NCBI GenBank assembly: GCA_038850515.1
Contig: JAWCLV010000002.1
Span: 1,966 to 65,965, forward strand
DNA: 64,000 nt
Direction of reading: 5' to 3'
Origin: Candidatus Bathyarchaeia archaeon
GTDB taxonomy: Archaea; Thermoproteota; CALKCG01; B24; JAGTQN01
Part shown: positions 252-39,854 of the stretch, one piece after another
Position numbering within the stretch: the first letter of the stretch is position 1
Layout: the number at the start of each line of letters is the position of its first letter
Translations under genes and position numbers: made by a program
Notes under the pieces: generated by a model
Databases searched by the model: none
What the model was told of the DNA's origin: nothing
The model's input: the letters and a program-made list of their open reading frames with translations, nothing else

Positions 252-1337
252 TTGATATTCAGGAGAAGTTCTCTGCGAAAGTACTGGCCTACCCTGTATG
301 AGGTTACAAAGGCTTGCGCCTCCGCTATGAATATTCCCGCCATCCTAAACCTTGTCGTTAGGGAAGTTACGGAAGCCATGAACATAAAGGCTTCATCCAT
401 ACACCTTCTAGATCCTAAGGAAAAAAGCTTGGAGCTTGCAGCCGCCTACGGGCTCAGCGACGATTTTCTTAAAAAGGTCTCAATTTTTCTAGAGAAAAGC
501 CCATTTGATCAGGAAGCCTTACAAGGTAAGCCCATAACCCTTCGAGAAGCCTTCAAAGAACCTAGGATTCCTTACCGAGATGCCTTAGAGAAGGAGGGAA
601 TAGCATCGATGGTCATAGTCCCTCTAATGGTTAGGGATAAAGCCATAGGAATTTTGAAGGCCTATACTTCCGTTCCTAGGAACTTCAGCCCTGCCGAATT
701 GGAGTTTCTCATAGCCCTCGCCGACATCTCTGCAGCTACCATAGAGAACGCAAGGCTAAACCAGAGCCTTCAGAAGCGTTGCAACGATCTTAACACCCTT
801 CTCAACGTCGTAAAAGCCATAGCATCGAGCTTTGGAACACCCGATGTCCTGAATGTGATCGCTAAAAGTGCCGTCGAGGTTTTGGGGGTGAAGGCATGCT
901 CCATAAGGCTTTACGACGAAAAAACGGGGCTCCTTAACCTAGCAGCCGCCTACGGGCTCAGCGACGAATACTTGAAGAAAGGTCCAGTAACGATCGAGAA
1001 GAGTCTCATCGATAAAGAAGCCTTACAAGGTAAGCCCATAGCCATACCTGACTTTGCCAGCGATCCGAGAGTTCAGTATAGAGAAGAGGCGAGAAAGGAA
1101 GGAATAGCCTCCGTCCTCTGCGTTCCACTTCCCTTCAAGGATAAAATGATCGGCACGATAAGGGTATACACGAGCCTTCCCCATGAGTTCACTGAGGAAG
1201 AGCTTTCCCTCCTCACCATGTTCGCAGCCCATGCCGCCATAGTCATACAGAACACAAAGCTTTATCAGATGGTTCTAAGGAACTGGCAGAAGCTTGTGGA
1301 TGAGGTTTTAGAGAAATGGCCCATTCTAACGGGCTGA
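252..1337 (+). CDS. tandem GAF-domain protein with no recognisable output domain
   Basis: 361-aa ORF with two homologous halves (LELAAAYGLSDDFLKK...EALQGKPI / LNLAAAYGLSDEYLKK...EALQGKPI, each followed by GIASxxxVPL...IGxxxxYT), which is the GAF pattern. Confidence 0.7.
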   Translation: MIFRRSSLRKYWPTLYEVTKACASAMNIPAILNLVVREVTEAMNIKASSIHLLDPKEKSLELAAAYGLSDDFLKKVSIFLEKSPFDQEALQGKPITLREAFKEPRIPYRDALEKEGIASMVIVPLMVRDKAIGILKAYTSVPRNFSPAELEFLIALADISAATIENARLNQSLQKRCNDLNTLLNVVKAIASSFGTPDVLNVIAKSAVEVLGVKACSIRLYDEKTGLLNLAAAYGLSDEYLKKGPVTIEKSLIDKEALQGKPIAIPDFASDPRVQYREEARKEGIASVLCVPLPFKDKMIGTIRVYTSLPHEFTEEELSLLTMFAAHAAIVIQNTKLYQMVLRNWQKLVDEVLEKWPILTG

Positions 1338-1382: not shown

Positions 1383-1925
1383 TTGGCAAAATCCCTCCTC
1401 AAGACGGATGAAAAAGAGGATTATGTCCTTAAGGTTGTAGAGGATGCGCTAAAGAGATATGGATCCAGAAGGGAAAACCTCATTGCCATCCTACAGGAAC
1501 TTCAGGGAAGTCTTGGATACCTTCCTATGAAAGGCATGAAAGCCGTAGCCGAGATGCTTCGAATCCCCCTATCCCAAGTCTACGGCGTCGCCACCTTCTT
1601 CCACCAGTTCAGATTGAACCAAAGGGGGAGGCACATGATTTTAATATGTATGGGAACGGCTTGCCACTTGAGGGGAGCGAACCAGAACTATGAGGCCCTA
1701 AGGAATTTCCTAAGGCTTAGGGATGATGAGGACACGACGGATGATGGAGAATTTACCCTCCTTAAGGTGCGTTGCATGGGAGCCTGTAGCCTAGCCCCCA
1801 TTATGAGGATAGATGATGCCATCTATGGAAGGGTAACCGTATCGGATATCATCAGAATCCTAAACGCCCTAAGAAGGGAAGGAAAGAAATCGGAGGATGT
1901 GGAAGGGAAAGAAGGTAAGGGATGA
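1383..1925 (+). CDS. NuoE/HoxE-like thioredoxin-fold [2Fe-2S] subunit of an NAD(P)H diaphorase
   Basis: 180-aa ORF with a TTG start. Cys pattern ICMGTAC...CMGAC is typical of the NuoE 24-kDa family. Lies directly upstream of the NuoF-like gene. Confidence 0.8.
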   Translation: MAKSLLKTDEKEDYVLKVVEDALKRYGSRRENLIAILQELQGSLGYLPMKGMKAVAEMLRIPLSQVYGVATFFHQFRLNQRGRHMILICMGTACHLRGANQNYEALRNFLRLRDDEDTTDDGEFTLLKVRCMGACSLAPIMRIDDAIYGRVTVSDIIRILNALRREGKKSEDVEGKEGKG

Positions 1926-1959
1926 AGAACAGGTGGGAGGGGAGTAAGCCTTCAACCTT

Positions 1960-3918
1960 ATGGATAAATGCTGCGATAAGTGTACTCACAGTATCGATAC
2001 GCCTTGTGCTGATTTCATCCTATGCCGAACTAGGGGCCCTATGCCTTGGTGCCATCAATCCGATCGATGCGCAGAGGAAAGGAGAAAGGCGATCGATCTT
2101 CTCCTTTATGGAGAAGGTAACAGGAAGATCTCACTGGGAATGGGAACATGCGGGCAAGCTTCGGGGGCACGAGAGGTCTATAAAGCGATAGTTGAGGAGG
2201 TTGCCAAACTTGGCTTAAGGTCAAGCATTATCCAAACGGGCTGTATGGGTATGTGCTATGCGGAACCCCTCCTTGAGCTTTCTGAAAAAGGCTATCCAAA
2301 CGCTTTGTACGCCAACATGAAGCCAGAATCCGTTCCAAAGATCCTAAGGGATTATTTTTTCGAAAGGGATGTATCAGGAGCCTTCGCCCTAAGGTTCAAA
2401 ACGGGTGTAACCAAGGGAGAGGAGGCTATCCCTCTTTTCGAAGAGCTTCCCTTCAACAAAGGAAGCATAAGGATCGTTACGAAGAAATGCGGTCTCGTCG
2501 ATCCAAGTTCTATAGAGAGCTACATCGCCTACGGAGGCTATCTGGGCTTAACGAAGGCGCTTCGTAAGATGTCGCCAGAGCAGGTTATCGAGGAAATGAA
2601 GGCTTCTGGGCTTAGGGGGAGAGGTGGAGCTGGCTTTCCGACGCATCTAAAGTGGATGATATGCAGACAAGCGATAGGGGATAAGAAATATATGGTCTGT
2701 AACGCGGATGAGGGGGATCCCGGAGCCTTCATGAATCGCATGCTTGCTGAGGGGGATCCCCATAGCATCCTAGAGGGTATGATCATAGCAGCCTATGCCA
2801 TAGGGGCTAGTGAGGGCTACATCTTCGTTAGAGCGGAGAAGCCCCTCATGGCTGAAAGGTTTAGAAAAGCCGTCGAGCAAGCCAAGAAATTCGGATTGCT
2901 TGGCAAGAACATTCTAAAGTCAGGCTTCAGCTTCGATGTTACGGTTATCCTAAGTGCAGGAGCCTTCGTTTGTGGTGAAGAGACAGCCATGATATCGACC
3001 ATCGAGGGTGGAAGGGCCATGCCTAGGGTTCGTCCTCCCTTTCCTGCTACCAAGGGACTTTTCGGGAAGCCAACAACGATAAACAACGTCGAAACCCTAG
3101 CCCACGTCGTCCGAATCATCCAAGATGGAGCCTCCGAATTCGCAAAGGTTGGATCTGAAAGGAGTAAAGGAACAAAAGTCTTCTGCCTTACTGGAAAAGT
3201 TGTGAGGACTGGAGCCGTAGAAGTTCCCTTGGGGACTCCGATTAGAAAGCTCATCTTTGAGATCGGGGGAGGGATTCAAGGAGGAAAAAGGTTTAAAGCC
3301 ATCCAGACAGGGGGACCCTCTGGCGGTTGCCTTTCTGAGAAGTTCCTCGATCTACCTTTGGATTATGAGACCCTCCAAAGTGCAGGTTCCATCATGGGAA
3401 GCGGAGGGCTCGTAGCTATGGATGAGGAAGCCTGTGCCGTCGATGTAGCAAGGTACTTTCTAACCTTCACAACGGCGGAATCTTGTGGCAAGTGCTCCCC
3501 ATGTCGAATCGGCCTTAGGCTTATGCTGGACATTTTGACCAGGATAACTTCAGGCGAAGGGAGGGAAGAGGATCTCGATAGGCTCGTAGAGTTAAGCAAT
3601 ACCATTCGGGATACGTCCCTATGCGCCCTTGGGCAGGGTGCCCCAAATCCCGTCCTCACAACCCTGAACTACTTCAGAGACGAGTATGAGGCCCATGTAA
3701 AGGAGAAGCGATGTCCAGCTGGCGTCTGTACAAAGCTATTAAACTTTTCCATAGATCAGGAAGCCTGTAAAGGTTGCGGGCTTTGCTACAGGTCCTGTCC
3801 TTCCTCAGCCATTCAACAAATTGGGGGGACTAGAAAGTACGCTATCGATGCTTCAAAATGCCTTCGATGCGGGCTATGCTTCACCCTATGCTCCTTCGGA
3901 GCCATCAGAAAGGGCTAG
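1960..3918 (+). CDS. NuoF/HoxF-like FMN- and NAD(P)H-binding subunit with C-terminal 2x[4Fe-4S] ferredoxin domain
   Basis: 652 aa. Contains the GLRGRGGAGFPT motif, ESCGKCSPCR (N3 cluster), and C-terminal CKGCGLCYRSCP and CLRCGLCFTLC. Also has an N-terminal Cys-rich extension and a thioredoxin-like segment. Confidence 0.9.
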   Translation: MDKCCDKCTHSIDTPCADFILCRTRGPMPWCHQSDRCAEERRKAIDLLLYGEGNRKISLGMGTCGQASGAREVYKAIVEEVAKLGLRSSIIQTGCMGMCYAEPLLELSEKGYPNALYANMKPESVPKILRDYFFERDVSGAFALRFKTGVTKGEEAIPLFEELPFNKGSIRIVTKKCGLVDPSSIESYIAYGGYLGLTKALRKMSPEQVIEEMKASGLRGRGGAGFPTHLKWMICRQAIGDKKYMVCNADEGDPGAFMNRMLAEGDPHSILEGMIIAAYAIGASEGYIFVRAEKPLMAERFRKAVEQAKKFGLLGKNILKSGFSFDVTVILSAGAFVCGEETAMISTIEGGRAMPRVRPPFPATKGLFGKPTTINNVETLAHVVRIIQDGASEFAKVGSERSKGTKVFCLTGKVVRTGAVEVPLGTPIRKLIFEIGGGIQGGKRFKAIQTGGPSGGCLSEKFLDLPLDYETLQSAGSIMGSGGLVAMDEEACAVDVARYFLTFTTAESCGKCSPCRIGLRLMLDILTRITSGEGREEDLDRLVELSNTIRDTSLCALGQGAPNPVLTTLNYFRDEYEAHVKEKRCPAGVCTKLLNFSIDQEACKGCGLCYRSCPSSAIQQIGGTRKYAIDASKCLRCGLCFTLCSFGAIRKG

Positions 3919-3938
3919 TCCTTATGGGAGGTTAAATA

Positions 3939-4619
3939 ATGGTAAAGGTTGTAATAGACGGCTCCCAGGTCGAAGTGGTAGAGGGCTCCACTATCCTTGA
4001 GGCTGCAGAAAAGGCTGGAGCCAAGGTTCCAACCCTTTGCTACTTGAAGGGAATATACTCTGGCGCCGTTTGCCGCATATGCTCCGTCGAGGTGAAAGGT
4101 CTTCCTAGGCTTGTTCCAGCCTGTGCCTATCCCGTAGCGGAGAACATGGTCGTTAGTACGGACTCCAGAAGGGTTAGGGAAGCCAGAAGGATGATCCTAG
4201 AGATGATTTTGGCAACCCATAAACAAGACTGCCAGAGCTGCTCCTTAAAGGGTGGGGATTGTAAGCTTCTGGAACTGGCTGCCGAATATTGGCTTCAAGG
4301 CTTTTCCGTCTGCAATGAATGTCGATTCGTAGGTAAGGACTGTCTTCTGGAGAAGGGAGAACTCTGCCTTGGGCCCATAACCCTCGGGGGCTGCAGAGCC
4401 ATCTGTACTGCATCCGGTTATACGTGCGAGGGTTGTAGGGGCCCCCTCCTCGACATAGAGTTTGGGCTTTCAACCCTTCGTAAGTATGGTATCGATTGGC
4501 GGGAGGTCCTTAGGAGGCTCGGGAAGTATTCTTTGACTTCCGAGAGATTCCGAAAGGCTAAGGAACGAATCGAGGCTGAAGCTAATCTTCCCAGGGAAAG
4601 GGTAACGATCGAAAGATAG
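3939..4619 (+). CDS. fusion: HoxU/[FeFe]-hydrogenase F-domain N-terminus (2Fe-2S plus His-ligated 4Fe-4S) joined to the C-terminal FeS-binding half of a group-3 [NiFe] small subunit
   Basis: 226 aa. The N-terminus (VVIDGSQVEV...LCYL...CRICSVEV...AC, then HKQDCQSCSLKGGDC) matches the NuoG/HoxU/CpI N-terminus. The C-terminus (CLLEKGELCLGPITLGGCRAICTASGYTCEGCRGP) matches the C-terminal motif of MvhG/HydD-type small subunits. Confidence 0.75.
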   Translation: MVKVVIDGSQVEVVEGSTILEAAEKAGAKVPTLCYLKGIYSGAVCRICSVEVKGLPRLVPACAYPVAENMVVSTDSRRVREARRMILEMILATHKQDCQSCSLKGGDCKLLELAAEYWLQGFSVCNECRFVGKDCLLEKGELCLGPITLGGCRAICTASGYTCEGCRGPLLDIEFGLSTLRKYGIDWREVLRRLGKYSLTSERFRKAKERIEAEANLPRERVTIER

Positions 4620-4685
4620 GCGAAGAGGGGAGGCGATAAGAACGAAAACAGAAGGGGAGAACAGGAGAAGTGGAGAAGGAAGAGG

Positions 4686-6074
4686 ATGGAAGAGAAAGGA
4701 AGAAGGGTATGGGATGGGCTGGAAAAGGGAAGGGAGGAGAATGCCTTGAAGGTTCTTGAAATTTCTCCTATGGAAAGGATTGTGGGTCATACGAGACTTT
4801 TTGTTGAACTTGACGACGGGATTGTCAAGGAAGCGCGCTTCGAGATTCCAGAGGATGCTAGGTTTTTCGAAGCCTTCCTCGTCGGAAGGCGTTATGAAGA
4901 GGTCCCTGAGATCACTTCGAGGATCTGCGGGACTTGCAATGTAAACCATAGGATTGCAGCCCTAAGGGCGATAGAAAAAGCCCTCGGCATCGAGAATTCG
5001 AGGCAGACGGAGATGCTTAGGGAATTGGCGATATGTGGATCGAACCTTCAGAGTACAGCCCTCCATTTCTTCTTCCTAGCCCTTCCTGATTACCTTGGCT
5101 TTCGGAATACCTTGGAAATGGCTTCGAAGTGTCCTGAAGAAATCGCTAGGGGATTCAGACTAAAAAGCCTTGGGAATCTTATCGTTGAAGCCATAGCCGG
5201 AAGGGCCATCCATACTATAGCCATGGTTGTGGGAGGATTCACCTCCTATCCGTCGAGGGGGAGGCTTATAGGACTCACGAAAGCCCTTAAAGAGGCTGAG
5301 GGGGACTTCTTAAAAGCCCTTGAATTGGCTACTAGCCTAGAGTTTCCAAGGGCAAAGGGCTTCAACCAGACGCATATGTGTATAAAGGGTGATGGCGATT
5401 ACGCCTATAATGGAGACTTCGTCCAAGTAAGCGATGGAAGGGTCTTTCGATCTGAAGAATACAGGAATTTCTTGGAAGAGTCTGTCGTTCCATACGCTTC
5501 GACTAAGAGGTATAAGGTAGGAGGCTCTTGTTTCTACGTAGGCTCTAGGGCAAGGTTTAACATAAACGGAAGCTTCCTAGGGGAAAGGGTAAAAAAAGCG
5601 ATAGGCTCCCTAAACCTGAACCTTAGGCCACGGTTAGACAGCCCCTTCGAAAACCTTCTTGCAAAGGCCATAGAACTTCTCCATTACTATGACAGGAGCC
5701 TTTCCATATTAGAAGAGCTTCTTGATAGGCGATATATCGATAATATGATCATCACGCCTACTAGAACTAAAGGCGAGGGTGTCGGATCGACGGAGGCTAC
5801 TAGGGGCCTCCTAATTCACGAGTATGAGATCGGCGAGGGCGGAAGGATCGATTATGCAAACATCATAACCCCCACCGCTATGAATTCGGGACATATAGAG
5901 GATAGCGTAAAGGTTCTAGTATCGCAGCTTTCGGGGGAAGGGAAGGCTCATGAGGACCTTAAGTTGGAGTTGGAGAAGCTCATCAGGACTTACGATCCCT
6001 GTATAAGCTGTGCAACCCATGCCATACAGGTAATTCTTTCAGAAGAAGGTAAAGAGGCGAATTCCCTTGGATGA
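4686..6074 (+). CDS. [NiFe]-hydrogenase large (catalytic) subunit, group-3-like
   Basis: N-terminal RICGTCNVNH (RxCGxCxxxH) and C-terminal DPCISCATHA (DPCxxCxxH) Ni-Fe ligand motifs. An alternative TTG start at 4746 sits behind GGGAGGAG and would give MKVLEISPMERIVGH. Confidence 0.9.
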   Translation: MEEKGRRVWDGLEKGREENALKVLEISPMERIVGHTRLFVELDDGIVKEARFEIPEDARFFEAFLVGRRYEEVPEITSRICGTCNVNHRIAALRAIEKALGIENSRQTEMLRELAICGSNLQSTALHFFFLALPDYLGFRNTLEMASKCPEEIARGFRLKSLGNLIVEAIAGRAIHTIAMVVGGFTSYPSRGRLIGLTKALKEAEGDFLKALELATSLEFPRAKGFNQTHMCIKGDGDYAYNGDFVQVSDGRVFRSEEYRNFLEESVVPYASTKRYKVGGSCFYVGSRARFNINGSFLGERVKKAIGSLNLNLRPRLDSPFENLLAKAIELLHYYDRSLSILEELLDRRYIDNMIITPTRTKGEGVGSTEATRGLLIHEYEIGEGGRIDYANIITPTAMNSGHIEDSVKVLVSQLSGEGKAHEDLKLELEKLIRTYDPCISCATHAIQVILSEEGKEANSLG

Positions 6075-7587
6075 GTCTCAAGAAATGGAAATGGAAAAGA
6101 AAAAAATTGCCTTTTTCCAGCTTGGGGATTGCGGAGGGGATGAGCTAGAGTTCCTAAACCTCGATGGAAGGGCGCTTGATCTCTTAAAAAGGGCTAAGCT
6201 CGTCCAATCAACCCTCCTTGGGTTAAAGGATGATGGTCCCTACGATATCGCCCTAGTTGAGGGAATTGTAGCCTCTGAAGAAGATCTAAAGAAAATTAAA
6301 GAGATAAGGGAGAAATCGAAGGTCCTCGTAGCCTTAGGTTCATGCGCCACCCTCGGTGGTCTTCCCGGACTGAAGCGGAATGCTAGCGATGAAGATATCC
6401 GAAGCATTTACGGAAACGTAAGGCTCAAGAATCCTCCTATCGATAACTTGGGTCCCTTGGACCTCTTCGTAAAGATTGACTATTACCTCCATGGCTGTCC
6501 CGTAGATAAGGAGGAACTCTTCAGCCTTCTAAAGGGAATCCTTGATGGCTTAGAGATAAGGCAGGGGGAAAAGCGCTTTCCCTTCCTTAAGGCTTCCCAG
6601 ATGGAGCTTCCTGGAAGCGTCATATCGCTTCTACAGGACAAATGCATCCTTTGCGGGCGATGTGTTGAGATATGCTCAAGGGTGGTTTCAGCCATAGGAA
6701 TGGTGAATAGGGGTTTTAATACGATGGTTTCGACTCCCTTCAAGCTAAACTTCGATGAATCCAGCTGCATATCCTGTGGCCTTTGTACGGTCTACTGTCC
6801 TGCTGCAGCCATAATAGCTAGGGACGATTCTAGGCATGTCGAGGAACTTCTAAAGTCCAAGTTGGAGAAGAAGGGAAAGGGGAAAGGAGGGGGGAGAGGA
6901 AGCGAAGAAAATGAAGGAAAGCTTTTGAAGGCCTTCGTTGAGGTTGAAGCCGCGGCAGCAATAGGGGAGGCTTTTGGGCTCGATGGAGTCCAAATGGGAA
7001 GGCTTGCTTCAGCCCTAAGGCTCCTAGGCTTCGATGATATAATCCTCGTTAGTTGGAAAGAAATGGTCCTGAGGCACGGAGCTTCTATTCAAAAAGAAGG
7101 GAGTCCAGCCATGCTAATTCCCTGCAGCGAGGCGGCTAAGAAGTTCGTCGAGATATCGTACCCCGAACTCTTAGGAATGATGACAGAAGTTCCGAAAATT
7201 AGAGTTGATGATCAAGGCGCCATCTGGATAGCTCCATGTACTTCAAAGAAGCTAGATGCTAGGATACCTATCGTAACGACAAGGGAAATTATCCGATTAA
7301 TCAGAAGCCGCATGGAGTTCAAGGAACTCGAGGAAGGAGGCTACAAAGTCCTTTCGGAAGGATTAGGAATTTCTGGAAGGGTCAGGATAGTCCAAGGAAT
7401 CCCTTCGATAAGGGAAGAGCTTGAGAAAATCCAAGGGGGAAGATATTCCATGGAAAGCTTAGCCCTTTTTGTTTGCCCTGAAGGCTGTGTGGGAGGTGGA
7501 GGTCAACCCCCCATAGACATCGACCGTTTGCCAGGAAGAAGATCCATCGCCTCAGAGCTTGAAGCCCTTTCTGTAAAGGCTCTTTAA
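6067..7587 (+). CDS. fusion: [NiFe] small-subunit N-terminal (NuoB-like) domain + 2x[4Fe-4S] ferredoxin + truncated [FeFe]-hydrogenase H-domain-like module
   Basis: 506 aa. FFQLGDCGGDE, LGSCATLGG and HGCPV (small-subunit proximal-cluster motifs). CILCGRCVEIC and CISCGLCTVYCP (ferredoxin). ALRLLGFDDI, LIPCSEAAKKFVEISYPELL, APCTSKKLDA, TTREIIRLI and FVCPEGCVGGGGQP (H-domain P1/P2/P3 positions). ATG codons at 6085 and 6091 are alternative starts. Confidence 0.85.
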   Translation: MDESQEMEMEKKKIAFFQLGDCGGDELEFLNLDGRALDLLKRAKLVQSTLLGLKDDGPYDIALVEGIVASEEDLKKIKEIREKSKVLVALGSCATLGGLPGLKRNASDEDIRSIYGNVRLKNPPIDNLGPLDLFVKIDYYLHGCPVDKEELFSLLKGILDGLEIRQGEKRFPFLKASQMELPGSVISLLQDKCILCGRCVEICSRVVSAIGMVNRGFNTMVSTPFKLNFDESSCISCGLCTVYCPAAAIIARDDSRHVEELLKSKLEKKGKGKGGGRGSEENEGKLLKAFVEVEAAAAIGEAFGLDGVQMGRLASALRLLGFDDIILVSWKEMVLRHGASIQKEGSPAMLIPCSEAAKKFVEISYPELLGMMTEVPKIRVDDQGAIWIAPCTSKKLDARIPIVTTREIIRLIRSRMEFKELEEGGYKVLSEGLGISGRVRIVQGIPSIREELEKIQGGRYSMESLALFVCPEGCVGGGGQPPIDIDRLPGRRSIASELEALSVKAL

Positions 7588-8093
7588 TCAGGAAGGTTTC
7601 CTATCGATAGCTCATCAAAGACCATCTTTATGAGACCTGGGATGGTCCTTCTGACCTTTTCGCTCAAGGAAGCATGAAATCCCTCCAAATTCTCAACCTC
7701 GGCGCCAAGGATAATGACTTCCTTAGGAAATTCCTCACCCATTATCTTCTTGCAAAGAAGGAGGAGATCGATGGAATGAAGGCTATGGACCGATAAAGGC
7801 GTTGGAAGCTTCGAAAGGGTCTCTAGTTCGTTAAGCCTAAACTTCAACAAAGATGCCTTCTGATCACCAGTCTTCAAGGCATCTATTACGATGACCTTCT
7901 CCGCTCCCTTAAGAATCGATGGTAGATTCGTTCTTAAGGGATCCGCATCGTAAACCTTAACATTCTTTGGAAGTTTGATCCTTCGAATTTGCTTCAGAAC
8001 CTCTGGCCCCAATCCATCGTCAGATGCCAAAGGATTTCCAAATCCCAGCACAACTATACGCTTCGCCTTCATTTCCTCTCCCTGCGGCCTCAT
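7584..8093 (-). CDS. hydrogenase maturation endopeptidase (HycI/HoxW/FrhD family)
   Basis: 169 aa. RIVVLGFGNPLASDDGLGPEV is the family signature. Convergent with the hydrogenase operon, overlapping it by 4 nt. Confidence 0.8.
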   Translation of the reverse strand: MRPQGEEMKAKRIVVLGFGNPLASDDGLGPEVLKQIRRIKLPKNVKVYDADPLRTNLPSILKGAEKVIVIDALKTGDQKASLLKFRLNELETLSKLPTPLSVHSLHSIDLLLLCKKIMGEEFPKEVIILGAEVENLEGFHASLSEKVRRTIPGLIKMVFDELSIGNLPD

Positions 8094-8742: not shown

Positions 8743-9561
8743 ATGCACGAGATCCTTTCGACTAGAAGCCTTTGCCCGGGCATCAAGCTTTTTGAAGTCT
8801 CAGCACCCCTTGTGGCTAGGAAGGCTGAGGCCGGAGAGTTCGTCATTATAAGGGTTGACGATAAAGGCGAGCGTATTCCCCTTACGATCGTAGACTGGTC
8901 TAGGCATCGGGGAAGCATTGCAATCGTTTTCCAAGAAATTGGAAGGTCTACTAAGAAGCTTGGAAGGCTGAAGGCTGGTGAAAAGATCCTAAACCTTGTA
9001 GGACCCCTAGGAAAACCCATCGAGAAGAGACTTTATGGCACAACGATCTGCGTAGCTGGTGGTGTTGGAATCGGAGCCATTTACCCTATCGCTAGGGCTC
9101 TAAAGGCTTCGAGAAACAGGGTCGTAACGATCATAGGGGCGAGGAGCAAGGAACTCCTTTTCTTTGAGGAAGAACTTCGATCTGTAAGCGATGAGCTTTA
9201 CGTAGCCACGGATGATGGATCCAAGGGAACGAAGGGCTTCGTAACGGATGTTTTGAAGAATTTGCTTCAAAGCCTTCGAACGGACATGGTTTATTCGGTT
9301 GGCCCTGTTTTGATGATGAAGGCAGTTGCGGAGGTAACGAGGCCCTACGGCATAAAAACGATCGCAAGCCTCAATCCCATTATGATCGATGGAACCGGTA
9401 TGTGTGGCTGTTGCCGGGTGATCGTAGGTGGAAGGATGATGTTTACCTGCGTTGATGGTCCAGACTTTGATGCCCATGAGGTCGATTTCGAGAATCTCTT
9501 GGCTAGAAATAGGCGATTCCTTGAGGAGGAAGCCCTGGCTCTGAAAAAAGATCTTGTTTGA
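8743..9561 (+). CDS. NfnA/SudB-like ferredoxin-NADP reductase-type subunit (FAD/NAD binding, C-terminal 2Fe-2S)
   Basis: 272 aa. Architecture like the PyrK/sulfide dehydrogenase beta subunit, with C-terminal DGTGMCGCCRV...FTCVDGP. Adjacent to a GltD-like gene. Confidence 0.75.
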   Translation: MHEILSTRSLCPGIKLFEVSAPLVARKAEAGEFVIIRVDDKGERIPLTIVDWSRHRGSIAIVFQEIGRSTKKLGRLKAGEKILNLVGPLGKPIEKRLYGTTICVAGGVGIGAIYPIARALKASRNRVVTIIGARSKELLFFEEELRSVSDELYVATDDGSKGTKGFVTDVLKNLLQSLRTDMVYSVGPVLMMKAVAEVTRPYGIKTIASLNPIMIDGTGMCGCCRVIVGGRMMFTCVDGPDFDAHEVDFENLLARNRRFLEEEALALKKDLV

Positions 9562-9579: not shown

Positions 9580-11001
9580 ATGGCATCGAATAGAGGCCTT
9601 GAAAAAAGGATGCCCTTTCCCGAGCGCGATCCTAAGGAAAGGATTCGGGACTTTGGGGAGGTTGCCTTAGGCTTCAAAGCCGAGGATGCCATTAAAGAGG
9701 CCCAAAGATGCCTTGAATGTAAAAGATCGCCCACCTCGAAGATATGCATCGATGGCTGCCCTGTGGAGATAGATATCCCTAGTTTTATCAAGGCTATAAA
9801 GAAGGGGGATTTCGAAGAAGCAATACGCATCATAAAAGATCGAAACAGCCTACCGGCCGTATGTGGTAGGGTATGTCCTTGGGAAAAGCAGTGTGAAGCC
9901 TTCTGTACGCTAGGTAGGCGTTGGGAGCCCGTCTCCATTGGAAGGCTAGAACGCTTTGTGGCAGACTTGGAGCACCAAAGGGGCCTTCAGATTCCAGAAC
10001 TTCCACCAAGAAATGGGAAGAAGGTAGCGATCGTGGGATCAGGACCAGCCGGGCTTACGGCGGCTGCTGAGCTTGCAAAGATTGGCTATGAGGTTACAAT
10101 ATTTGAGGCCCTTCATGCGCCCGGAGGCGTCCTTCTTTATGGCATACCTGAGTTCAGGCTTCCCAAGGTCATCGTTGAGGCGGAAGTCGAATACATAAGG
10201 AGGCTTGGAGTCAACATCCTCACAGATATCGTCATTGGAAAAACCCTTACCCTCGATGAGCTATTAGCGGATTTTAATGCAGTCTTCATAGCCACAGGGG
10301 CTGGGCTCCCCCAATGGCTCGGCATATCAGGCGAGAGCCTTAACGGCGTTTACTCAGCCAATGAATTCCTAACAAGGGTCAACCTCATGAAAGCCTATCG
10401 ATTTCCCGATTACGATACTCCAATAAAGGTAGGAAGGGTTGTCGTTACGATAGGAGGGGGTAATGTCGCCATGGACTGCGCTAGGACGGCTTTAAGACTC
10501 GGGGTCGAAAAATCGATTGTAGTCTACAGAAGATCGGAGAAGGAAATGCCTGCGAGGGGTGAGGAGGTTGAAAGGGCGAAAGCTGAAGGGGTCGAATTCC
10601 TTTTTTTGACAAATCCCAAGAGGTTCCTAGGGGATGAGAAAGGATGGGTTAGGAAAGTCGAATGCCTTCGTATGGAGCTTGGGGAGCCTGATGCCTCAGG
10701 TAGGCGCAGACCAATAGCCAAGCCCGGCTCAGAATTCCTTATCGATGCGGACACGGTTATCATAGCCATAGGACAGGCTCCCAACCCCCTTATTCCAAGG
10801 ACCACAGAGGGCCTTAAGACGCGGGAAGATGGAACTATCCTTGTGGATACCCAAGGGAGGACATCGAAGCCAGGGGTCTTTGCAGGAGGGGATATAACCA
10901 CTGGCGATGCGACCGTTGTAGAAGCCATAGGAGCCGGGAGAAGGGTTGCAAAGGAAATCCATCGCTACTTAAGCCTCAAGGAGCCTTGGCCAAGGCTTTA
11001 A
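9580..11001 (+). CDS. NfnB/SudA/GltD-like NAD(P)H-dependent oxidoreductase (glutamate synthase small-subunit family)
   Basis: 473 aa. N-terminal Cys clusters (CLEC...CPVEIDIP, CGRVCP...C), GSGPAGL dinucleotide fold, and a second GGGNVAMDCA fold. Confidence 0.85.
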   Translation: MASNRGLEKRMPFPERDPKERIRDFGEVALGFKAEDAIKEAQRCLECKRSPTSKICIDGCPVEIDIPSFIKAIKKGDFEEAIRIIKDRNSLPAVCGRVCPWEKQCEAFCTLGRRWEPVSIGRLERFVADLEHQRGLQIPELPPRNGKKVAIVGSGPAGLTAAAELAKIGYEVTIFEALHAPGGVLLYGIPEFRLPKVIVEAEVEYIRRLGVNILTDIVIGKTLTLDELLADFNAVFIATGAGLPQWLGISGESLNGVYSANEFLTRVNLMKAYRFPDYDTPIKVGRVVVTIGGGNVAMDCARTALRLGVEKSIVVYRRSEKEMPARGEEVERAKAEGVEFLFLTNPKRFLGDEKGWVRKVECLRMELGEPDASGRRRPIAKPGSEFLIDADTVIIAIGQAPNPLIPRTTEGLKTREDGTILVDTQGRTSKPGVFAGGDITTGDATVVEAIGAGRRVAKEIHRYLSLKEPWPRL

Positions 11002-11293: not shown

Positions 11294-11917
11294 ATGCGTC
11301 CCAATACCGTGAAAGGCTGGGAAAGGGCTACAGGCTTGATAAGAAAGCAAGCACCTTTGAAGGAGCGCATTGCCCACTCTTTGTATCGCCTGAAGGTTCA
11401 GCAGAATAGGCTAGAGGGAGCCGCCATGCGTATGCAACAACACGACAGAAACCTCTTTGAAAAGTGCGTAGCAGCCCAGGCTTCAAGGGACTCTTCTAGA
11501 GCAGCCATGTATGCCAACGAATGTGCCGAGGTTAGGAAGATGCAGAAGATCATCCTCAGGGCAGCCCTCGCCCTAGAACAGGTAATCCTCAGGCTTGAAA
11601 GTGTCCAAGAGTTTGGAGATGTCGTGGTTGCCATGGCCCCTGTAGCTGGCGTCGTTCGATCCCTCCAGAGCCAGCTATCGGGCGTCATACCAGAGGTTTC
11701 CTACGAGCTTGGAAGGATAGGAGAAGACTTGGGCAAGATAGTCATCGAGTTCGGAGAGACGACTGGCACGGGATGGGAAATTGAGGCAACAGGCGAGGCC
11801 CAGAGGATCCTTGAGGAGGCTTCAGCCATAGCGGAGCAGAAGATGAGGGAGCGCTTCCCAGAGATACCAGCCGTCATGGAGCCTACCGAGAAAGTTGGAG
11901 AGGCTATGAAAAAGTAG
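11294..11917 (+). CDS. cdvB: ESCRT-III (Snf7-like) CdvB paralog without winged-helix tail
   Basis: 207 aa. Aligns along its length with the downstream CdvB (YANECAEVRKM, LRLESVQEFGDV, GVIPEV, ILEEASAIAEQKMRERFPEIP). Confidence 0.85.
   Translation: MRPNTVKGWERATGLIRKQAPLKERIAHSLYRLKVQQNRLEGAAMRMQQHDRNLFEKCVAAQASRDSSRAAMYANECAEVRKMQKIILRAALALEQVILRLESVQEFGDVVVAMAPVAGVVRSLQSQLSGVIPEVSYELGRIGEDLGKIVIEFGETTGTGWEIEATGEAQRILEEASAIAEQKMRERFPEIPAVMEPTEKVGEAMKK
11810..11868 (+). repeat. 59-nt patch, identical at 57/59 positions to 13266-13324 (between the two cdvB paralogs)
   Basis: CTTGAGGAGGCTTCAGCCATAGCGGAGCAGAAGAT(G/A)A(G/A)GGAGCGCTTCCCAGAGATACC occurs in both genes, while the rest of the two genes has diverged at the DNA level. 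Confidence 0.8.
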
Positions 11918-11928
11918 GGTAGGTTAAA

Positions 11929-12699
11929 ATGACCTTAAGCATGGAGTTAGGAAAGAAGTACCTTGGAAAGCCCGTCTTCGACATCTATGGCAGGAACCTA
12001 GGAAGGATTGTAGGGCTAAACGCTGATGTGAAAAATGAAGTAACGCAGATAGAGGTGGAGCTCGGAAGCGGAGAGTTCTTCAGTTGTCCGAGTTCCCTGA
12101 TCCTCATCAAGGGCGACTCCGTAAGCTATGTCTACCAGTGGAAAATTGATGCCCAAAACATAGAGAAGGCCATGACCCTAGCCCTTAAGAGGCTATATGC
12201 CCTCGATGAACTCCTCCGCATAGGAGAAATCCCAAGGGACATATATGAAGACTTCAAGAAATACCATGAATCCTCATTAAACCAATTAAAGGATCGAAGA
12301 AGGATCCTTGTCGATGGATTGAAGGAACGCGTCAACAGGCTCAACTCCCAGATCAAGGAGCTCCAAGTCTTCCTGGCTAGCCTTAAGATGCAACATTCTA
12401 CGGGTGAGCTCGATGAAGGTACCTACAAGGATATGTGCGCCGCAATACAGTCTGGACTGAACAGGACATCCTCGGAGAAGGAGGACATCGAAGCCACTAT
12501 AACGGAGCTTATGCAGCTAGATCTGAAAGCGACTCCGCCTCCTCCTGCACCAAAGCCCTTACAGGAGGCCAAGCCTCCTGCGCCCCAGAGCCCTGTAACG
12601 GTGCCAGATTCCCAACCCGGCAAGTCTCCATCGCCATCAGCATCGGAGTCTAGTGAGGTCAAGCCCCAGAAGCCCATAGTTGTCCAAATCGAAGGTTAA
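11929..12699 (+). CDS. cdvA: CdvA (PRC-barrel N-terminus, coiled coil, Pro-rich tail)
   Basis: 256 aa. N-terminal GKPVFDIYGRNLGRIVGL (PRC-barrel-like), a long heptad region, and a PPPPAPKPLQEAKPPAPQSP tail. Sits between the two cdvB genes. Confidence 0.75.
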   Translation: MTLSMELGKKYLGKPVFDIYGRNLGRIVGLNADVKNEVTQIEVELGSGEFFSCPSSLILIKGDSVSYVYQWKIDAQNIEKAMTLALKRLYALDELLRIGEIPRDIYEDFKKYHESSLNQLKDRRRILVDGLKERVNRLNSQIKELQVFLASLKMQHSTGELDEGTYKDMCAAIQSGLNRTSSEKEDIEATITELMQLDLKATPPPPAPKPLQEAKPPAPQSPVTVPDSQPGKSPSPSASESSEVKPQKPIVVQIEG

Positions 12700-12728
12700 A
12701 GGCTTCTGGGCTTCTAGGAGGGGGTTCC

Positions 12729-13562
12729 TTGACAAAAATAAAATGGGATGATGAGTCCAAGGGAAAGCTTTCAAAGCTCACGGAGAAGCTTCGGATCCCA
12801 AGGCGATCCTTGAAGGAAGCGATTGTAACTGCATGTTTTCGCCTTCAATCTCAAAGGGGAAGGCTTGAGCAAACCATCGCAAGGCTTCAGCAGAGGGATA
12901 GGGAGATCTTCGAACGCTGCATTGGGGCGAAGCTTTCTGGGGATAAGAACCACGCAGTCATGTATGCCAACGAGTGCGCTGAGCTTAGGAAGATGGCAAA
13001 ACTTGTGATGAGTGCCCAACTCGCCTTGGAGAGGGTCATCCTTAGGCTTGAGACAGTCCAAGAGTTCGGAGACGTCATAGCCCAAATCGCTCCCGTTATG
13101 AGCATCCTCAAGGAAACGAGGAGCCGCCTAGCTGGAGTCATACCTGAGGTTGCCATGGAACTGGATCAGGTTAACTCCCTCCTAGGCAATACACTCATAG
13201 AGACTGGTGAAGTCGGAGCAACCCAAAGCATCCTCGAAGCCACAAGTGCTGAGGCTAGGAAGGTTCTTGAGGAGGCTTCAGCCATAGCGGAGCAGAAGAT
13301 AAAGGAGCGCTTCCCAGAGATACCTTCGCTTCCCTTGCCAGAAGGGCCGCTACCCGAAGGGGTGTCCCTAGGATCCGTAAGCCTTAGGGCATCCTTAAGC
13401 TTGGATCCCTTATCCTTGGAGGATCAGGTTTACGATTACATAGTCAAACACGACGGAAGGATCAGCACAACGAAGTGCGCCTCAGAGTTGAAGGTATCCG
13501 AGGGCGATGTCAGGAAAGCCCTATCGATTTTGAAGGAGAAGGGGAGGATCGTGATTCCCTAG
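12729..13562 (+). CDS. cdvB: ESCRT-III CdvB with Pro-rich MIM2-like linker and C-terminal winged-helix domain
   Basis: 277 aa with a TTG start. Snf7-like core, then PSLPLPEGPLPEG, then YDYIVKHDGRISTTKCASELKVSEGDVRKALSILKEKGRI (wH). Confidence 0.85.
   Translation: MTKIKWDDESKGKLSKLTEKLRIPRRSLKEAIVTACFRLQSQRGRLEQTIARLQQRDREIFERCIGAKLSGDKNHAVMYANECAELRKMAKLVMSAQLALERVILRLETVQEFGDVIAQIAPVMSILKETRSRLAGVIPEVAMELDQVNSLLGNTLIETGEVGATQSILEATSAEARKVLEEASAIAEQKIKERFPEIPSLPLPEGPLPEGVSLGSVSLRASLSLDPLSLEDQVYDYIVKHDGRISTTKCASELKVSEGDVRKALSILKEKGRIVIP
13266..13324 (+). repeat. second copy of the cdvB 59-nt conserved patch
   Basis: See 11810-11868. Confidence 0.8.
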
Positions 13563-13631
13563 TAGAATAGATGTAAGCCCTAACGCCTCGAACAGCCCTA
13601 GAAGAAGATCAAAGCGGAGTGATGATGGAGG

Positions 13632-14786
13632 ATGGCCGCCGAGTACCTGGAACAGCTGGCGGCTAAAAACGCTAATGAAGCCATTCAGCTAGATCGCCAA
13701 GGCTCCGCCGGAATGGCCGTCGCCAAATATCAAAGGGCAGTTGAGATACTCCTAAAGCTCTGTTCCCTTTACCCCTCTTCCCCCCATAGCCAAATCTATA
13801 TGGACCGCCTTCACTGTTATCAAAGGAGGATCCAGGAACTCCAGAGATATATTACCTATAATGGAACCTATGAGAGGGCTAATAGGCTTGGAGAAGGCGG
13901 AAGCCCTGGTCTAGGAAAGTTTGATCAACTCATCCTGAACGAAAAGCCCAACGTTAGATGGGAGGACATCGCAGACCTAAAACAATGCAAGAAGGCTATA
14001 GAAGATGCCATCGTTTTCCCTGTAAAAAGGCCAGATCTCTTTCCGCTAGGATGGCCAAGGGGAATCCTCTTCTTCGGACCTCCAGGCTGTGGAAAGACTA
14101 TGCTAGCAGCGGCGGTAGCCACGGAAATCGATGCAGCCTTCTTCTGTGTAGATGCAGCATCCATCATGTCTAAGTGGCTTGGAGAATCTGAGCAGAACGT
14201 TGCCGCCCTTTTCGCTGAGGCAAGGCACATCTCCGATGGCGGTAAACCAGCCGTCATATTCTTGGATGAGGTTGATTCCCTTGCTGGCCTTAGGTCCTAT
14301 GAGGTAGGTGGTGAAGTAAGGGTTCGTAACCAGTTCTTGAAGGAGATGGATGGAGTCTTGGAAAAGAGCCGAAAATCCTATGTTTACATCATAGGAGCCA
14401 CCAACAAGCCTTGGGCTTTGGATGAACCCTTCATAAGGCGCTTTCAGAAGCGCATCTATGTACCGCTTCCAGATGAGGAAGGTAGGCTCGAACTCTTAAA
14501 CCTCCTGACGAAAAGCCTTAAGATTGCTCCGGATGTGGACCTTGCGTATCTTTCTAAGGTAACGGAAGGCTATACAGCCAGCGACATTACAGACATCGTC
14601 CAGGCAGCCCATCTAAACGTCGTAAGGGAATTCTTTGAAAGCCATGCTCCAAACGATAAATCCGGGGAAACTAGGGCCCTAAGCCTCGATGATTTCCTCA
14701 AGGTTCTGAAAGATCGGAAGCCTACTGTTTCGAAGGAAATGCTTAGGAACTACGAGCGCTGGTTCGAGGCGTACAAAGGGTTGTAG
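13632..14786 (+). CDS. cdvC: Vps4-like AAA+ ATPase CdvC (MIT domain plus AAA)
   Basis: 384 aa. N-terminal MIT-like helices, Walker A GPPGCGKT, Walker B IFLDEVD, and the second region of homology. Confidence 0.9.
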   Translation: MAAEYLEQLAAKNANEAIQLDRQGSAGMAVAKYQRAVEILLKLCSLYPSSPHSQIYMDRLHCYQRRIQELQRYITYNGTYERANRLGEGGSPGLGKFDQLILNEKPNVRWEDIADLKQCKKAIEDAIVFPVKRPDLFPLGWPRGILFFGPPGCGKTMLAAAVATEIDAAFFCVDAASIMSKWLGESEQNVAALFAEARHISDGGKPAVIFLDEVDSLAGLRSYEVGGEVRVRNQFLKEMDGVLEKSRKSYVYIIGATNKPWALDEPFIRRFQKRIYVPLPDEEGRLELLNLLTKSLKIAPDVDLAYLSKVTEGYTASDITDIVQAAHLNVVREFFESHAPNDKSGETRALSLDDFLKVLKDRKPTVSKEMLRNYERWFEAYKGL

Positions 14787-37418: not shown

Positions 37419-38414
37419 TTGTCGACTTATAAAGCCCGTATCATTTTGTTCTCAAAATCGCTTTTTTCGTTTTTCTCAAATTTTTCGGAGATTTTATCTT
37501 CTGGCATGACCACTCGTCTCATAGCCTTCTCAAAGATGGATAGAAGCAAAAAAAGGATTTTTATTGCATTTCAGAGATTTATTGAAAGGGAAATTGCGTT
37601 GAACTATCAAGCCCAAACCTTTGCCATCATAGGCTTTGGCAGATCATCTGGAAAAACCACCGTGATTGGAGCCCTTATCAAAGAGCTCAGGCAAAGGCGT
37701 TACCCGGTCGCTACGATAAAGCATATCCATAGGCGCTTTGATGTAGCCAATAAGGATACGGAACTTCATGCGAAGGCTGGAGCCATATCCGTTACGGCTG
37801 TTTCGCCAAGGGAGTTGGCGATAATGCACTATGATATTCCTCCAAACCTTGAAAACGCACTGAAGTCCGTATCCCCAAAGGCATCCTTCATCCTCATTGA
37901 GGGTTTTAGACGCTCTGAGTTGCCTAAGATCCTATGTTTGTCTAATAGTAATGATATCGAGGCTTTGAATAAGAGGGAAGGTATAGGAGGATCCATCATG
38001 GCAATCATCGACATCTTCGGGAATCCTAACCTTTCAGGAAGCCTTATGGGAATACCTGTATTCAGACTTGAAGAAATCCCGAAACTTGCAGATCTTTTGG
38101 AAATGCATGCCCTAGAAGCCCTAGGAAAGGCCCTGCCTGGTCTAAACTGTGGACGATGCGGCTACAAGGATTGTCTAGAGATGGCCAAGGCAATTCTGAG
38201 GAAAGAAGCGTCCATTAGCCAATGCGTTCCCCTTGGCTATCAGGAAACTATCCTTGAAATCTATGGAGAATCAATCCCCATGGTTCCCTTCGTCCAAAGG
38301 CTTTTGAAGAATACGATCCTTGGACTCATATCGACTTTAAAGGGTACTGAAAGACTCGAGGGTACGGATCCCTCGAAGCTTCGTGTAAGTGTAAAAATTG
38401 AGACTATCGAATAA
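37419..38414 (+). CDS. mobB: MobB-like P-loop protein with C-terminal Cys-motif (Fe-S-type) domain
   Basis: FAIIGFGRSSGKTTVIGALIKELRQRRYPVATIKHIHRRFD is the MobB signature. The C-terminus carries LNCGRCGYKDCLEMA. The start is probably an internal ATG (MTTRL or MDRSKK). Confidence 0.7.
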   Translation: MSTYKARIILFSKSLFSFFSNFSEILSSGMTTRLIAFSKMDRSKKRIFIAFQRFIEREIALNYQAQTFAIIGFGRSSGKTTVIGALIKELRQRRYPVATIKHIHRRFDVANKDTELHAKAGAISVTAVSPRELAIMHYDIPPNLENALKSVSPKASFILIEGFRRSELPKILCLSNSNDIEALNKREGIGGSIMAIIDIFGNPNLSGSLMGIPVFRLEEIPKLADLLEMHALEALGKALPGLNCGRCGYKDCLEMAKAILRKEASISQCVPLGYQETILEIYGESIPMVPFVQRLLKNTILGLISTLKGTERLEGTDPSKLRVSVKIETIE

Positions 38415-38438
38415 AATTGATGGTAAAATAAGAGTTGC

Positions 38439-39608
38439 TTAGGAGCCCCAGAAGGGCTTTAGCCATTCTTCCTTTATGCGTACTCCGAAGCCAGGCTCCT
38501 TGCTAGGTGCGACATAACCGTCTTTAGGTATCGGAGCCCCTGGCATCCATTGCGCCTCCTCCAAAGGAACCCCCGGAGGGGATCCTATGAAGTATTCGGC
38601 CCATGGCATGTTGGGCATGGCATAGGTTAAATGAAGTCCGTAGGGGCTATTGGCTCCTCCATGAAGGCAGACCATTAGACCCGCTAAATCAGCCATATGA
38701 CAGATCTTTAGGCAGGAAGTTATGCCACCAACCCAGAAGAGGTCGGGCTGAAGAATGTCTAAGGCTCTCATTTCTATAGCCTCCCTAAAGCGCCACGGTG
38801 AGAACCAGTGCTCTACACCAGCCAAGGAAACCCAGTTGACCGCCCTCCTCACCGCCAGATAGCCATCCAAGTCTTCCGGTATGAGGAATTCCTCGATCCA
38901 TTTAAGACCGTAAGGCCTAAGCCTCCTCGCCAGTCGTATCGTGTAATCGACATCGAAGGCCATGTAACAATCTAGCATAATATCCACGTCATTACCTACA
39001 AGTTCCCTCGTCCTTGCTACTAGATTCTCATTCTCCTTCAGCCCCCAAAGGCCATCCGCCGGACCATAGGGGCATGCCAGCTTCACGGCTTTGAAGCCCA
39101 GCTCAAGCTGCCAATCCGTATCGTTTCCTGTAGCATAGCAGAAGATCCGATCCCTAGCAGGGCCGCCGAGGAGTTCATAAACGGGAGCTCCGTTAAGCTT
39201 TCCTACAAGGTCCCATAAGGCCATGTCGATGCCGCTAATGGCACACATGGCAAGGCCCTCGGAACCATAGGGCTTGGTGAGGCGGAACATCATATCCCAT
39301 AGCTTTTCTATGGCAAAGCAATCCTCGCCCTCGAGCATGGGGGCAAGGTGATCGTCTATTATGGCTGCGACTGGTCGCCCGTAAGAGGCGGGGGCAGCCC
39401 CCCATGTGCCATCCTCAGCCGTTACCTTAACCCATAGGCCTCCCCATTTTGGAAGCCATAGCCTCCTATGCCTCTTGAACCTTGGATACTTAGACATAGG
39501 GTTGGCAACTTCTGCATCCTCTACCCAGGATGGCCTTCGAGGCTTGGTCCTAGGTCCCTCCTTTTGAGGCATCTCGAGCCTCATGGCTCTGATTTCCTTT
39601 ATCTTCAT
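38439..39608 (-). CDS. enolase-superfamily (mandelate racemase/muconate lactonizing) sugar-acid dehydratase, rhamnonate-dehydratase-like
   Basis: 389 aa with a capping domain plus barrel pattern (DVDIMLDCYMAFD, WIEEFL, GVEHW). Confidence 0.8.
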   Translation of the reverse strand: MKIKEIRAMRLEMPQKEGPRTKPRRPSWVEDAEVANPMSKYPRFKRHRRLWLPKWGGLWVKVTAEDGTWGAAPASYGRPVAAIIDDHLAPMLEGEDCFAIEKLWDMMFRLTKPYGSEGLAMCAISGIDMALWDLVGKLNGAPVYELLGGPARDRIFCYATGNDTDWQLELGFKAVKLACPYGPADGLWGLKENENLVARTRELVGNDVDIMLDCYMAFDVDYTIRLARRLRPYGLKWIEEFLIPEDLDGYLAVRRAVNWVSLAGVEHWFSPWRFREAIEMRALDILQPDLFWVGGITSCLKICHMADLAGLMVCLHGGANSPYGLHLTYAMPNMPWAEYFIGSPPGVPLEEAQWMPGAPIPKDGYVAPSKEPGFGVRIKEEWLKPFWGS

Positions 39609-39854
39609 TCTATCACCTTTGAAAAAAATGAGGCAAAGTGTTCGAATAAGCTTTTGCTTGCGAAGGCATCATAGCCTTTGCATAGCTTTCTTTCTTGAGC
39701 CTTGAAAAGCTTATTGTAGCTAAGAATCGATCTTCGAGAAGGAGGGACAAGTAAAGGGCTTTCTTGCCTTCGAAGAGGTCGTTATCTCTAAACTTCTCGA
39801 TGGTTTTTCCAACGGAACGGAAGGGTTTTAAACCGGGGAAGGATAGCATTTCTC

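Follow-up and report, generated by a model that had tools for sequence, protein, structure and literature searches.

We report that the open reading frame (ORF) at 6067-7587 on the forward strand of a 64,000-nucleotide stretch of Candidatus Bathyarchaeia DNA (assembly GCA_038850515.1, contig JAWCLV010000002.1, positions 1,966 to 65,965; the whole stretch is hereafter called the window) very probably encodes HyhS-HydA, the fusion subunit of a cytosolic hybrid hydrogenase with the five subunits HydC, HydB, HydD, HyhL and HyhS-HydA. By its sequence, the predicted protein joins the proximal-cluster half of a [NiFe] hydrogenase small subunit, a ferredoxin domain and a shortened [FeFe] hydrogenase H-domain, and would belong to group F of the [FeFe] and group 3f of the [NiFe] hydrogenases. 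This fusion class was published in 2024 (Greening et al., Cell, PMC11216029), and the window protein is a further Bathyarchaeia member of it, of incremental value. The gene and its modules are laid out as follows.

6067-7587, forward strand: HyhS-HydA fusion subunit, 506 amino acids (ORF, Pfam, sequence matches in the Protein Data Bank (PDB), Foldseek).
6094-6561, forward strand, residues 10-165: N-terminal, proximal-cluster half of a group 3 [NiFe] small subunit (PF01058; residues 2-147 of the delta subunit of sulfhydrogenase I (SHI), E 3e-21).
6619-6831, forward strand, residues 185-255: 2x[4Fe-4S] ferredoxin domain, the equivalent of the HydA F-clusters that precede the H-domain (Fer4; HydA1 residues 143-210).
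6853-6927, forward strand, residues 263-287: Gly/Lys/Glu-rich linker (purine-rich, low-complexity DNA).
6928-7512, forward strand, residues 288-482: shortened [FeFe] H-domain (PF02906, motif alignments, structure model, Foldseek).

A preliminary description of the window had read this ORF as three modules within a single uninterrupted 506-residue product, and hidden Markov model, sequence-to-structure and fold comparisons bear out that make-up. The profile searches that it proposed all gave matches, with the two hydrogenase families above their cut-offs: Oxidored_q6 (PF01058) scored 81.8 bits (cut-off 27; E 4.5e-23) over residues 22-155, several Fer4 families matched residues 190-250, and Fe_hyd_lg_C (PF02906) scored 49.3 bits (cut-off 22.1; E 6.7e-13) over residues 296-478, with positions 12-245 of its 245-position profile aligned. 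A sequence search of solved structures paired residues 10-155 with the SHI delta subunit of Pyrococcus furiosus (E 3e-21) and residues 190-486 with HydA1 of Thermoanaerobacter kivui (E 3e-24) and of Acetobacterium woodii (E 8e-22). All of the peptides quoted in the description (FFQLGDCGGDE, LGSCATLGG, HGCPV, CILCGRCVEIC, CISCGLCTVYCP, ALRLLGFDDI, PAMLIPCSEAAKKFVEISYPELL, WIAPCTSKKLDA, TTREIIRLI and FVCPEGCVGGGGQP) are present in the translation, and the eight Cys of the ferredoxin domain are invariant (8/8) in an alignment of 120 sequences.

An initial AlphaFold2 model built from 8 sequences was poor, with a predicted local distance difference test (pLDDT) score of 60.8. The second, built from 120 sequences dominated by group A HydA, reached a mean pLDDT of 81.9, with the ferredoxin domain and H-domain mostly above 90. 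Foldseek matches of this model were all [FeFe] hydrogenases, namely T. kivui HydA1 (E 4e-22), CpI, A. woodii HydA1 and Thermotoga maritima HydA; the template modelling score to T. kivui HydA1 was 0.52 when normalised to the whole 506-residue query. The Gly/Lys-rich linker noted earlier is there, at residues ~266-286, and is modelled with lower pLDDT (67 for the block of residues 271-280). It corresponds to a purine-rich, low-complexity stretch at 6862-6927 on the forward strand that encodes KKGKGKGGGRGSEENEGK. Since the insert is unique to the window protein, missing from a 66%-identical relative and from all others compared, it is probably a recent slippage-type insertion between domains.

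Greening et al. described group F [FeFe] hydrogenases as HyhS-HydA fusions with contiguous HyhL, HydB, HydC and a four-cluster HydD, named Bathyarchaeia, Brockarchaeia, Thermoplasmata and Thermoproteia, along with Lokiarchaeia, as hosts, and used the CxxxC motif that ligates the catalytic centre as a filter (PMC11216029). The window has the same defining fusion, with a group 3 small-subunit domain at the N-terminus and an H-cluster domain at the C-terminus of one polypeptide. It also has the same four partner genes, contiguous at 1383-6074, the CxxxC motif (C470, C474), and an archaeal host of a named class, Bathyarchaeia. The statement in the preliminary description that hybrid hydrogenases have only recently been reported in archaea is thus correct (Greening et al. 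2024, PMC11216029), and its placing of such a hybrid outside the classical hydrogenase classification is out of date, as the protein fits group F / 3f. The same study tested two fusions of Thermoplasmata SG8-5: Th1, a group F member, made H2 after artificial maturation with [2Fe]adt, at 5% of the Chlamydomonas reinhardtii enzyme, and Th2 was barely active (PMC11216029).

Two branches can be told apart within the fusion family. Short-form proteins (430-506 amino acids), which include the window protein, have P-x-S in H-cluster motif P1, with Ser at the ligand position, and the gene order C-B-D-L-fusion (hydC, hydB, hydD, hyhL, fusion). Long-form proteins (563-580 amino acids) have S-W-C-P, with a Cys ligand, and the order C-B-fusion-D-L. 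Features of the window protein's own within the hybrids are Asp25, Cys353 (shared with P0002 and P0125 only) and the lineage-specific Gly/Lys linker.

The H-domain holds exactly four Cys (353, 391, 470 and 474), which lie in LIPC353S354EA (P1), APC391TSKK(LD) (P2) and VC470PEGC474VGGGGQP (P3). P1 departs from the canonical TSCCPxW, with just the C of LIPCSEA in common, while P2 (APCTSKKLD) is close to the canonical MPCxxKxxE, and its hexapeptide PCTSKK is identical to that of CpI. In P3, ALFVCPEGCVGGGGQP keeps the Cys and GGGQP of the canonical ExMxCxxGCxxGGGQP and not its E and M; VCPEGCVGGGGQP is, like P2, near canonical. The CxxxC element (C470-PEG-C474), which is followed by VGGGGQP, is invariant in the 120 aligned sequences, and C391, C470, C474 and GGGQ are conserved in the fusion family.

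In CpI numbering, the first Cys of P1 (TSCCP) is C299, the proton relay, and the second is C300, a ligand of [4Fe-4S]H. HMMER pairwise, MAFFT (35 sequences) and 120-sequence alignments agree in placing Cys353 on the first and Ser354 on the second Cys of TSCCP (codons TGC AGC), and C391, C470 and C474 align to C355, C499 and C503 of CpI, with Ser354 at the C300 position. The earlier observation that P1 keeps only one of its two Cys therefore stands in number, but the retained residue aligns to the relay, and it is the ligand that is Ser354. The same holds for the remark that four Cys remain for [4Fe-4S]H: the H-domain does have four, but with C353 at the relay, one of the four ligand positions is occupied by Ser354.

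Ser stands at position 354 in 18/19 short-form relatives; P0125 from Brockarchaeota (PCC) and every long-form fusion (SWCP) have Cys there. Across 30 fusion-family and 5 group A (non-fusion) reference HydA sequences the position is always Ser or Cys, which fits a metal-ligand role that tolerates Ser. At position 353, Cys occurs among the fusions only in P0001, P0002 and P0125. The Cys-Ser dipeptide (TSCSP/TSCSS) is found outside the fusions as well, in 88 of 112 group A matches, including A. woodii HydA1 of PDB 7q4v. As A. woodii HydA1 is an active enzyme, Cys-Ser is compatible with a working hydrogenase. A literature search on the TSCSP variant returned no statement on Ser ligating the cluster in such enzymes.

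From these alignments, the H-domain would most likely bind [4Fe-4S]H through Ser354, Cys391, Cys470 and Cys474, with Cys474 bridging to the [2Fe] subsite and Cys353 serving as proton relay. We thus regard the H-domain as most likely a second H2 site in the complex. Several findings weigh against this assignment. The canonical ligand Cys (CpI C300) is Ser, and P1 is otherwise unrecognisable. The region of the E279/E282 proton pathway is missing, and the H-domain has lost about one third of its length relative to CpI; the earlier description had called it much shorter. Pfam gave no match to the PF02256 C-terminal region in the fusion, which ends 24 residues past the GGGQP motif; group A matches do have PF02256. 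Neither hydE/F/G nor hyp genes were found among the ORFs of at least 150 amino acids in the window, and HypC, HypD and HypF from locus L084, used as tblastn queries, had no match there. The second structure model is biased towards the group A fold by its alignment. Finally, the proteins tested in vitro come from Thermoplasmata, and the long-form fusions, which may include those enzymes, differ from the window protein in P1 and gene order.

The main rival reading takes the H-domain of the short-form clade to be a non-catalytic remnant that binds a [4Fe-4S] cluster at most, or acts as a structural, electron-relay or sensory module, in a complex that is [NiFe]-only and bifurcating like NiFe-HydABCSL of Acetomicrobium mobile. 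We consider this the less probable reading, though one with a substantial share of the probability. The Ser substitution in 18 of the 19 short-form relatives, most of which lack any P1 Cys, and the missing proton-pathway region both point that way, as does the absence of hydEFG from the window; all three maturases occur in just 5 of 130 archaeal genomes that have [FeFe] hydrogenases. HydB has its nearest solved relative in the A. mobile complex (E 2.6e-218), and the distant family member P0136 is fused to histidine-kinase and receiver domains, which suggests sensing in that branch. However, P2 and P3 (CxxxC, GGGQP) are conserved across members that are only 34-69% identical, which argues for cofactor binding, and PCTSKK matches the core of the canonical MPCxxKxxE. 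The window protein has kept the relay Cys, unlike most of its relatives, and shares Cys-Ser with the active A. woodii HydA1. In addition, the phmmer match between the fusion and HydA of A. mobile (7t2r_A) is confined to the ferredoxin region (residues 165-253) and leaves out the H-domain.

HydB of A. mobile NiFe-HydABCSL (7t2r) is the best solved match of the window's HydB, homologues of HydA-N, HydS and HydL are all present in the window, and the predicted logic of a [NiFe] site wired to a Bfu-type flavoprotein is shared. HydS and HydA are separate proteins there and fused in the window, which also keeps P2 and P3; Greening et al. likewise contrast the A. mobile enzyme with the archaeal complex and its true H-cluster domain (PMC11216029). 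HydABC-type [FeFe] hydrogenases (T. kivui 8a6t, A. woodii 7q4v, T. maritima 7p5h) provide the best sequence and fold matches of fusion residues 185-490, have homologous HydB and HydC and, in A. woodii HydA1, the same Cys-Ser P1. They differ in that the N-terminus of HydA, with its [2Fe-2S] and His-[4Fe-4S] clusters, is carried in the window by the separate HydD, and in that the window H-domain is about one third shorter and lacks PF02256, with a [NiFe] module added.

The fusion gene is the last of a tight, co-directional operon of five genes that is followed by a convergent maturation gene.

1383-1925, forward strand: HydC, NuoE/HoxE-like, thioredoxin-like [2Fe-2S] subunit (PF01257, E 1.4e-44; NCBIfam HoxE/NuoE, E 1e-44 to 7e-39).
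1960-3918, forward strand: HydB, NuoF-like flavin mononucleotide/NAD(H) flavoprotein of the bifurcating (Bfu) type (Complex1_51K, E 1e-44; NADH_4Fe-4S, E 8e-34).
3939-4619, forward strand: HydD chimera of HydA-N and the C-terminal half of a small subunit (Fer2_4, NADH-G_4Fe-4S_3).
4686-6074, forward strand: HyhL, group 3 [NiFe] large subunit with both CxxC pairs (PF00374, E 1.7e-28).
7584-8093, reverse strand: HycI/HyaD-type [NiFe] maturation endopeptidase (PF01750, E 1.5e-12; TIGR00072, 103 bits against a cut-off of 47).

In HydB, the NuoF_pre_CCxxC model (55 bits; cut-off 45) recognises an N-terminal CCxxC prefix, and Fer4 families at residues 597-650 mark a C-terminal 2x[4Fe-4S] domain. The whole length of the protein matches A. 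mobile subunit B (7t2r_B), and the next-best matches are HydB of A. woodii, T. maritima and T. kivui. HyhL is closest among solved structures to the alpha subunit of group 3b SHI (E 8e-74); its RICGTC (C81, C84) and DPCISCATH (C439, C442, H445) motifs are invariant in 5 orthologues, and it has a C-terminal extension for proteolytic maturation. The maturation endopeptidase gene overlaps the stop codon of the fusion gene by 4 nucleotides and lies in the same position in loci L081 and L082. An assignment to the HoxEFUYH type (group 3d) was considered and rejected: HyhL has its closest match in group 3b, and the genes that resemble HoxY and HoxU are chimeric, containing parts of HydA.

HydD has a composite structure that mirrors that of the fusion. 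Residues 1-120 correspond to the N-terminus of a HydA/NuoG-type protein with a [2Fe-2S] and a His-ligated [4Fe-4S] cluster (residues 5-118 to A. woodii HydA1 7-119, E 5e-27), in keeping with the earlier reading of this gene as NuoG/HoxU-like. That reading fits just the N-terminal part, however, as residues 122-211 form the C-terminal half of a group 3b [NiFe] small subunit, with 8 Cys for two [4Fe-4S] clusters, medial and distal (to P. furiosus SHI delta 161-255, E 5e-14). The 16 predicted ligands, a number sufficient for four clusters, do not vary among 5 orthologues (16/16). The medial/distal segment is accordingly found on HydD and not on the fusion, where a HydA-type ferredoxin takes the place after the proximal-cluster domain. 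By these alignments the two proteins are reciprocal chimeras, HydA-N~HyhS-C and HyhS-N~HydA-C. The small-subunit half of HydD is already implicit in the work of Greening et al., who used MvhG as the template for its cofactors (PMC11216029). SHI (P. furiosus / Thermococcus kodakarensis; 9nez, 5yxy) is the closest solved relative of HyhL and of both small-subunit halves; its delta subunit is one polypeptide of ~260 amino acids, whereas in the window each half is joined to one half of a HydA-like protein.

In the proximal-cluster domain, C22, C93 and C144 are invariant among relatives, and position 25, mostly Cys in relatives, is Asp in the window protein. C22, D25, C93 and C144 are the likely ligands of the proximal cluster, judging by this conservation. 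The preliminary description had rightly read C-G-G-D with Asp in place of one Cys, and there is a precedent in FrhG of F420-reducing hydrogenase, whose proximal [4Fe-4S] cluster is ligated by three Cys and Asp60 (PMC3930138). Asp25 falls about at Asp60 by alignment offset (query residue 8 corresponds to chain residue 43), although FrhG belongs to group 3a and has other partners. Among close relatives Asp25 is limited to P0001 and P0002; CxGD or CxGE is also found in fusions P0132, P0133, P0135 and P0140 and in the free-standing small subunits P0173 and P0235.

These data bear on a second rival, in which the [NiFe] half is vestigial, HyhL is decorative and the complex amounts to an [FeFe] enzyme of the HydABC type. 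The division of the small subunit over two polypeptides and the change of one proximal-cluster Cys to Asp would be expected of such decay, but HyhL has kept its four Ni-Fe Cys, H445 and the C-terminal extension, a dedicated maturation endopeptidase adjoins the operon in a syntenic position, the medial and distal cluster Cys on HydD are invariant (8/8), and Asp ligation is functional in FrhG. A vestigial [NiFe] half is accordingly very improbable, and we retain the reading of a hybrid complex with a [NiFe] site.

The frame at 6067-7587 runs for 506 codons with zero internal stops and is open across all module boundaries; its TTG start overlaps the stop codon TGA (6072-6074) of the upstream gene, and alternative in-frame ATG starts at 6085 and 6091 would leave the domains unaffected. 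An identical 506-residue protein, attributed by NCBI to a metagenome-assembled genome of Candidatus Bathyarchaeia, is encoded among the same neighbours on an independent contig of 12 kb from GCA_038870285.1, and a 66%-identical fusion is present on three Joint Genome Institute (JGI) contigs. When 1.84 billion representatives were searched with a profile, the full-length fusion architecture was seen in ~30 clusters (at 50% identity); they stem from many samples and phyla, their linker regions can be aligned between relatives, and Brockarchaeota, Thermoprotei, Sulfolobales and Asgard are the sources of the nearest relatives. Among the matches listed in a contig scan with generic ferredoxin and small-subunit patterns, L001 and L002 (Desulfurococcales) are family members and most of the others are bacterial HydA loci of the ordinary kind. 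A frameshift, misassembly or missed stop joining two genes, which was considered only because the preliminary description had named it as grounds for refutation and for which nothing positive speaks, is practically discounted by the open frame across every boundary, the identical protein on a second contig, the full-length fusions in many samples and phyla, and their alignable linkers; the fusion is not an assembly artefact, because identical and related fusions occur on independent contigs.

For the Thermoplasmatota UBA147 enzyme, the five subunits have been modelled as a bifurcating/confurcating complex (PMC11216029). By analogy, the small-subunit domain of the fusion would dock on HyhL and relay electrons from the [NiFe] site, and together with the C-terminus of HydD it would rebuild a complete small subunit there. 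The ferredoxin clusters would join this [NiFe] arm and the H-domain to a wire through HydD, HydB and HydC. As modelled for the Thermoplasmatota enzyme, the HydB flavin would then couple H2/H+ to NAD(H) together with ferredoxin, by bifurcation or confurcation. The order C-B-D-L-fusion is kept in four other loci, L082, L083, L084 (Asgard) and L085 (Sulfolobales), whose contigs carry the relatives P0002, P0003, P0005 (Asgard) and P0006 (Sulfolobales). In the long-form locus L086 (8001-11731), the order is C-B-fusion-D-L, and fusion-D-L is a cyclic rotation of the D-L-fusion of the window. Such cyclic orders of chimeric genes are a hint of a single insertion or permutation event behind the hybrid hydrogenases. 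Among the short forms, the Bathyarchaeia/Brockarchaeia sub-branch (P0001, P0002, P0125) alone has kept the relay Cys, which in P0001 and P0002 is accompanied by putative Ser ligation of [4Fe-4S]H and putative Asp ligation of the proximal [NiFe] cluster. A more ambitious proposal is that both sites are active, in which case one complex would contain two chemically different H2 catalysts with naturally re-tuned cluster potentials, wired by reciprocal chimeras of single-event origin. We hold this full combination to be unlikely.

To our knowledge, the hybrid [NiFe]-[FeFe] hydrogenases are the only case of both unrelated H2 catalysts in one polypeptide and complex, and they bear on the evolution of archaeal H2 metabolism. 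The window adds a well-assembled Bathyarchaeia example with the full operon, a maturation protease, an NfnAB-like pair and an upstream GAF protein. The clade-specific substitutions at the two metal sites (Ser for an H-cluster ligand Cys, Asp for a proximal Cys) are natural experiments in cluster tuning; together with the relay Cys that has been kept, they will interest specialists. Having a bifurcating hydrogenase further bears on whether Bathyarchaeia can supply low-potential ferredoxin for acetogenesis that depends on H2.

The operon is preceded by one further gene.

252-1337, forward strand: tandem-GAF protein with two GAF domains (Pfam GAF_2/GAF/GAF_3), 45 nucleotides upstream of hydC.

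A two-GAF gene occupies the equivalent place in the related JGI locus L082, and the protein may regulate the hydrogenase operon as a sensor of small molecules. Just downstream of the hydrogenase, an NfnA/NfnB-like (SudB/SudA-like) pair lies at 8743-9561 and 9580-11001 on the forward strand, composed of a DHODB-type Fe-S/NAD-binding protein and a GltD-like Fer4_20/Pyr_redox_2 protein, and it is syntenic in L081 and L082. Its location by the hydrogenase suggests linked balancing of NADH, NADPH and ferredoxin. GC content is even (0.46-0.51) across the operon and the first 15 kb, and therefore the operon is not compositionally foreign and shows nothing to suggest a recent transfer. No tRNA genes were predicted by ARAGORN in the 64 kb. 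A Cdv cell-division cluster follows at 11294-14786 on the forward strand, with CdvA at 11929-12699, Vps4/CdvC at 13632-14786 and two ORFs without Pfam matches (11294-11917 and 12729-13562) that may be ESCRT-III-like. CdvA and Vps4 confirm an archaeal context and fit a TACK archaeon. A gene for CofE (F420-0:gamma-glutamyl ligase) at 42416-43180 on the reverse strand and MobB/MobA-like molybdopterin-guanine dinucleotide genes within 37419-42341 indicate F420 and Mo/W-cofactor metabolism in this archaeon. Outside the window, the distant family member P0136 (859 amino acids, from a JGI metagenome) has its receiver and histidine-kinase domains ahead of the HyhS-HydA fusion, with SWCK in P1 and a P3 that ends in GGGN, and could be an H2-sensing kinase.

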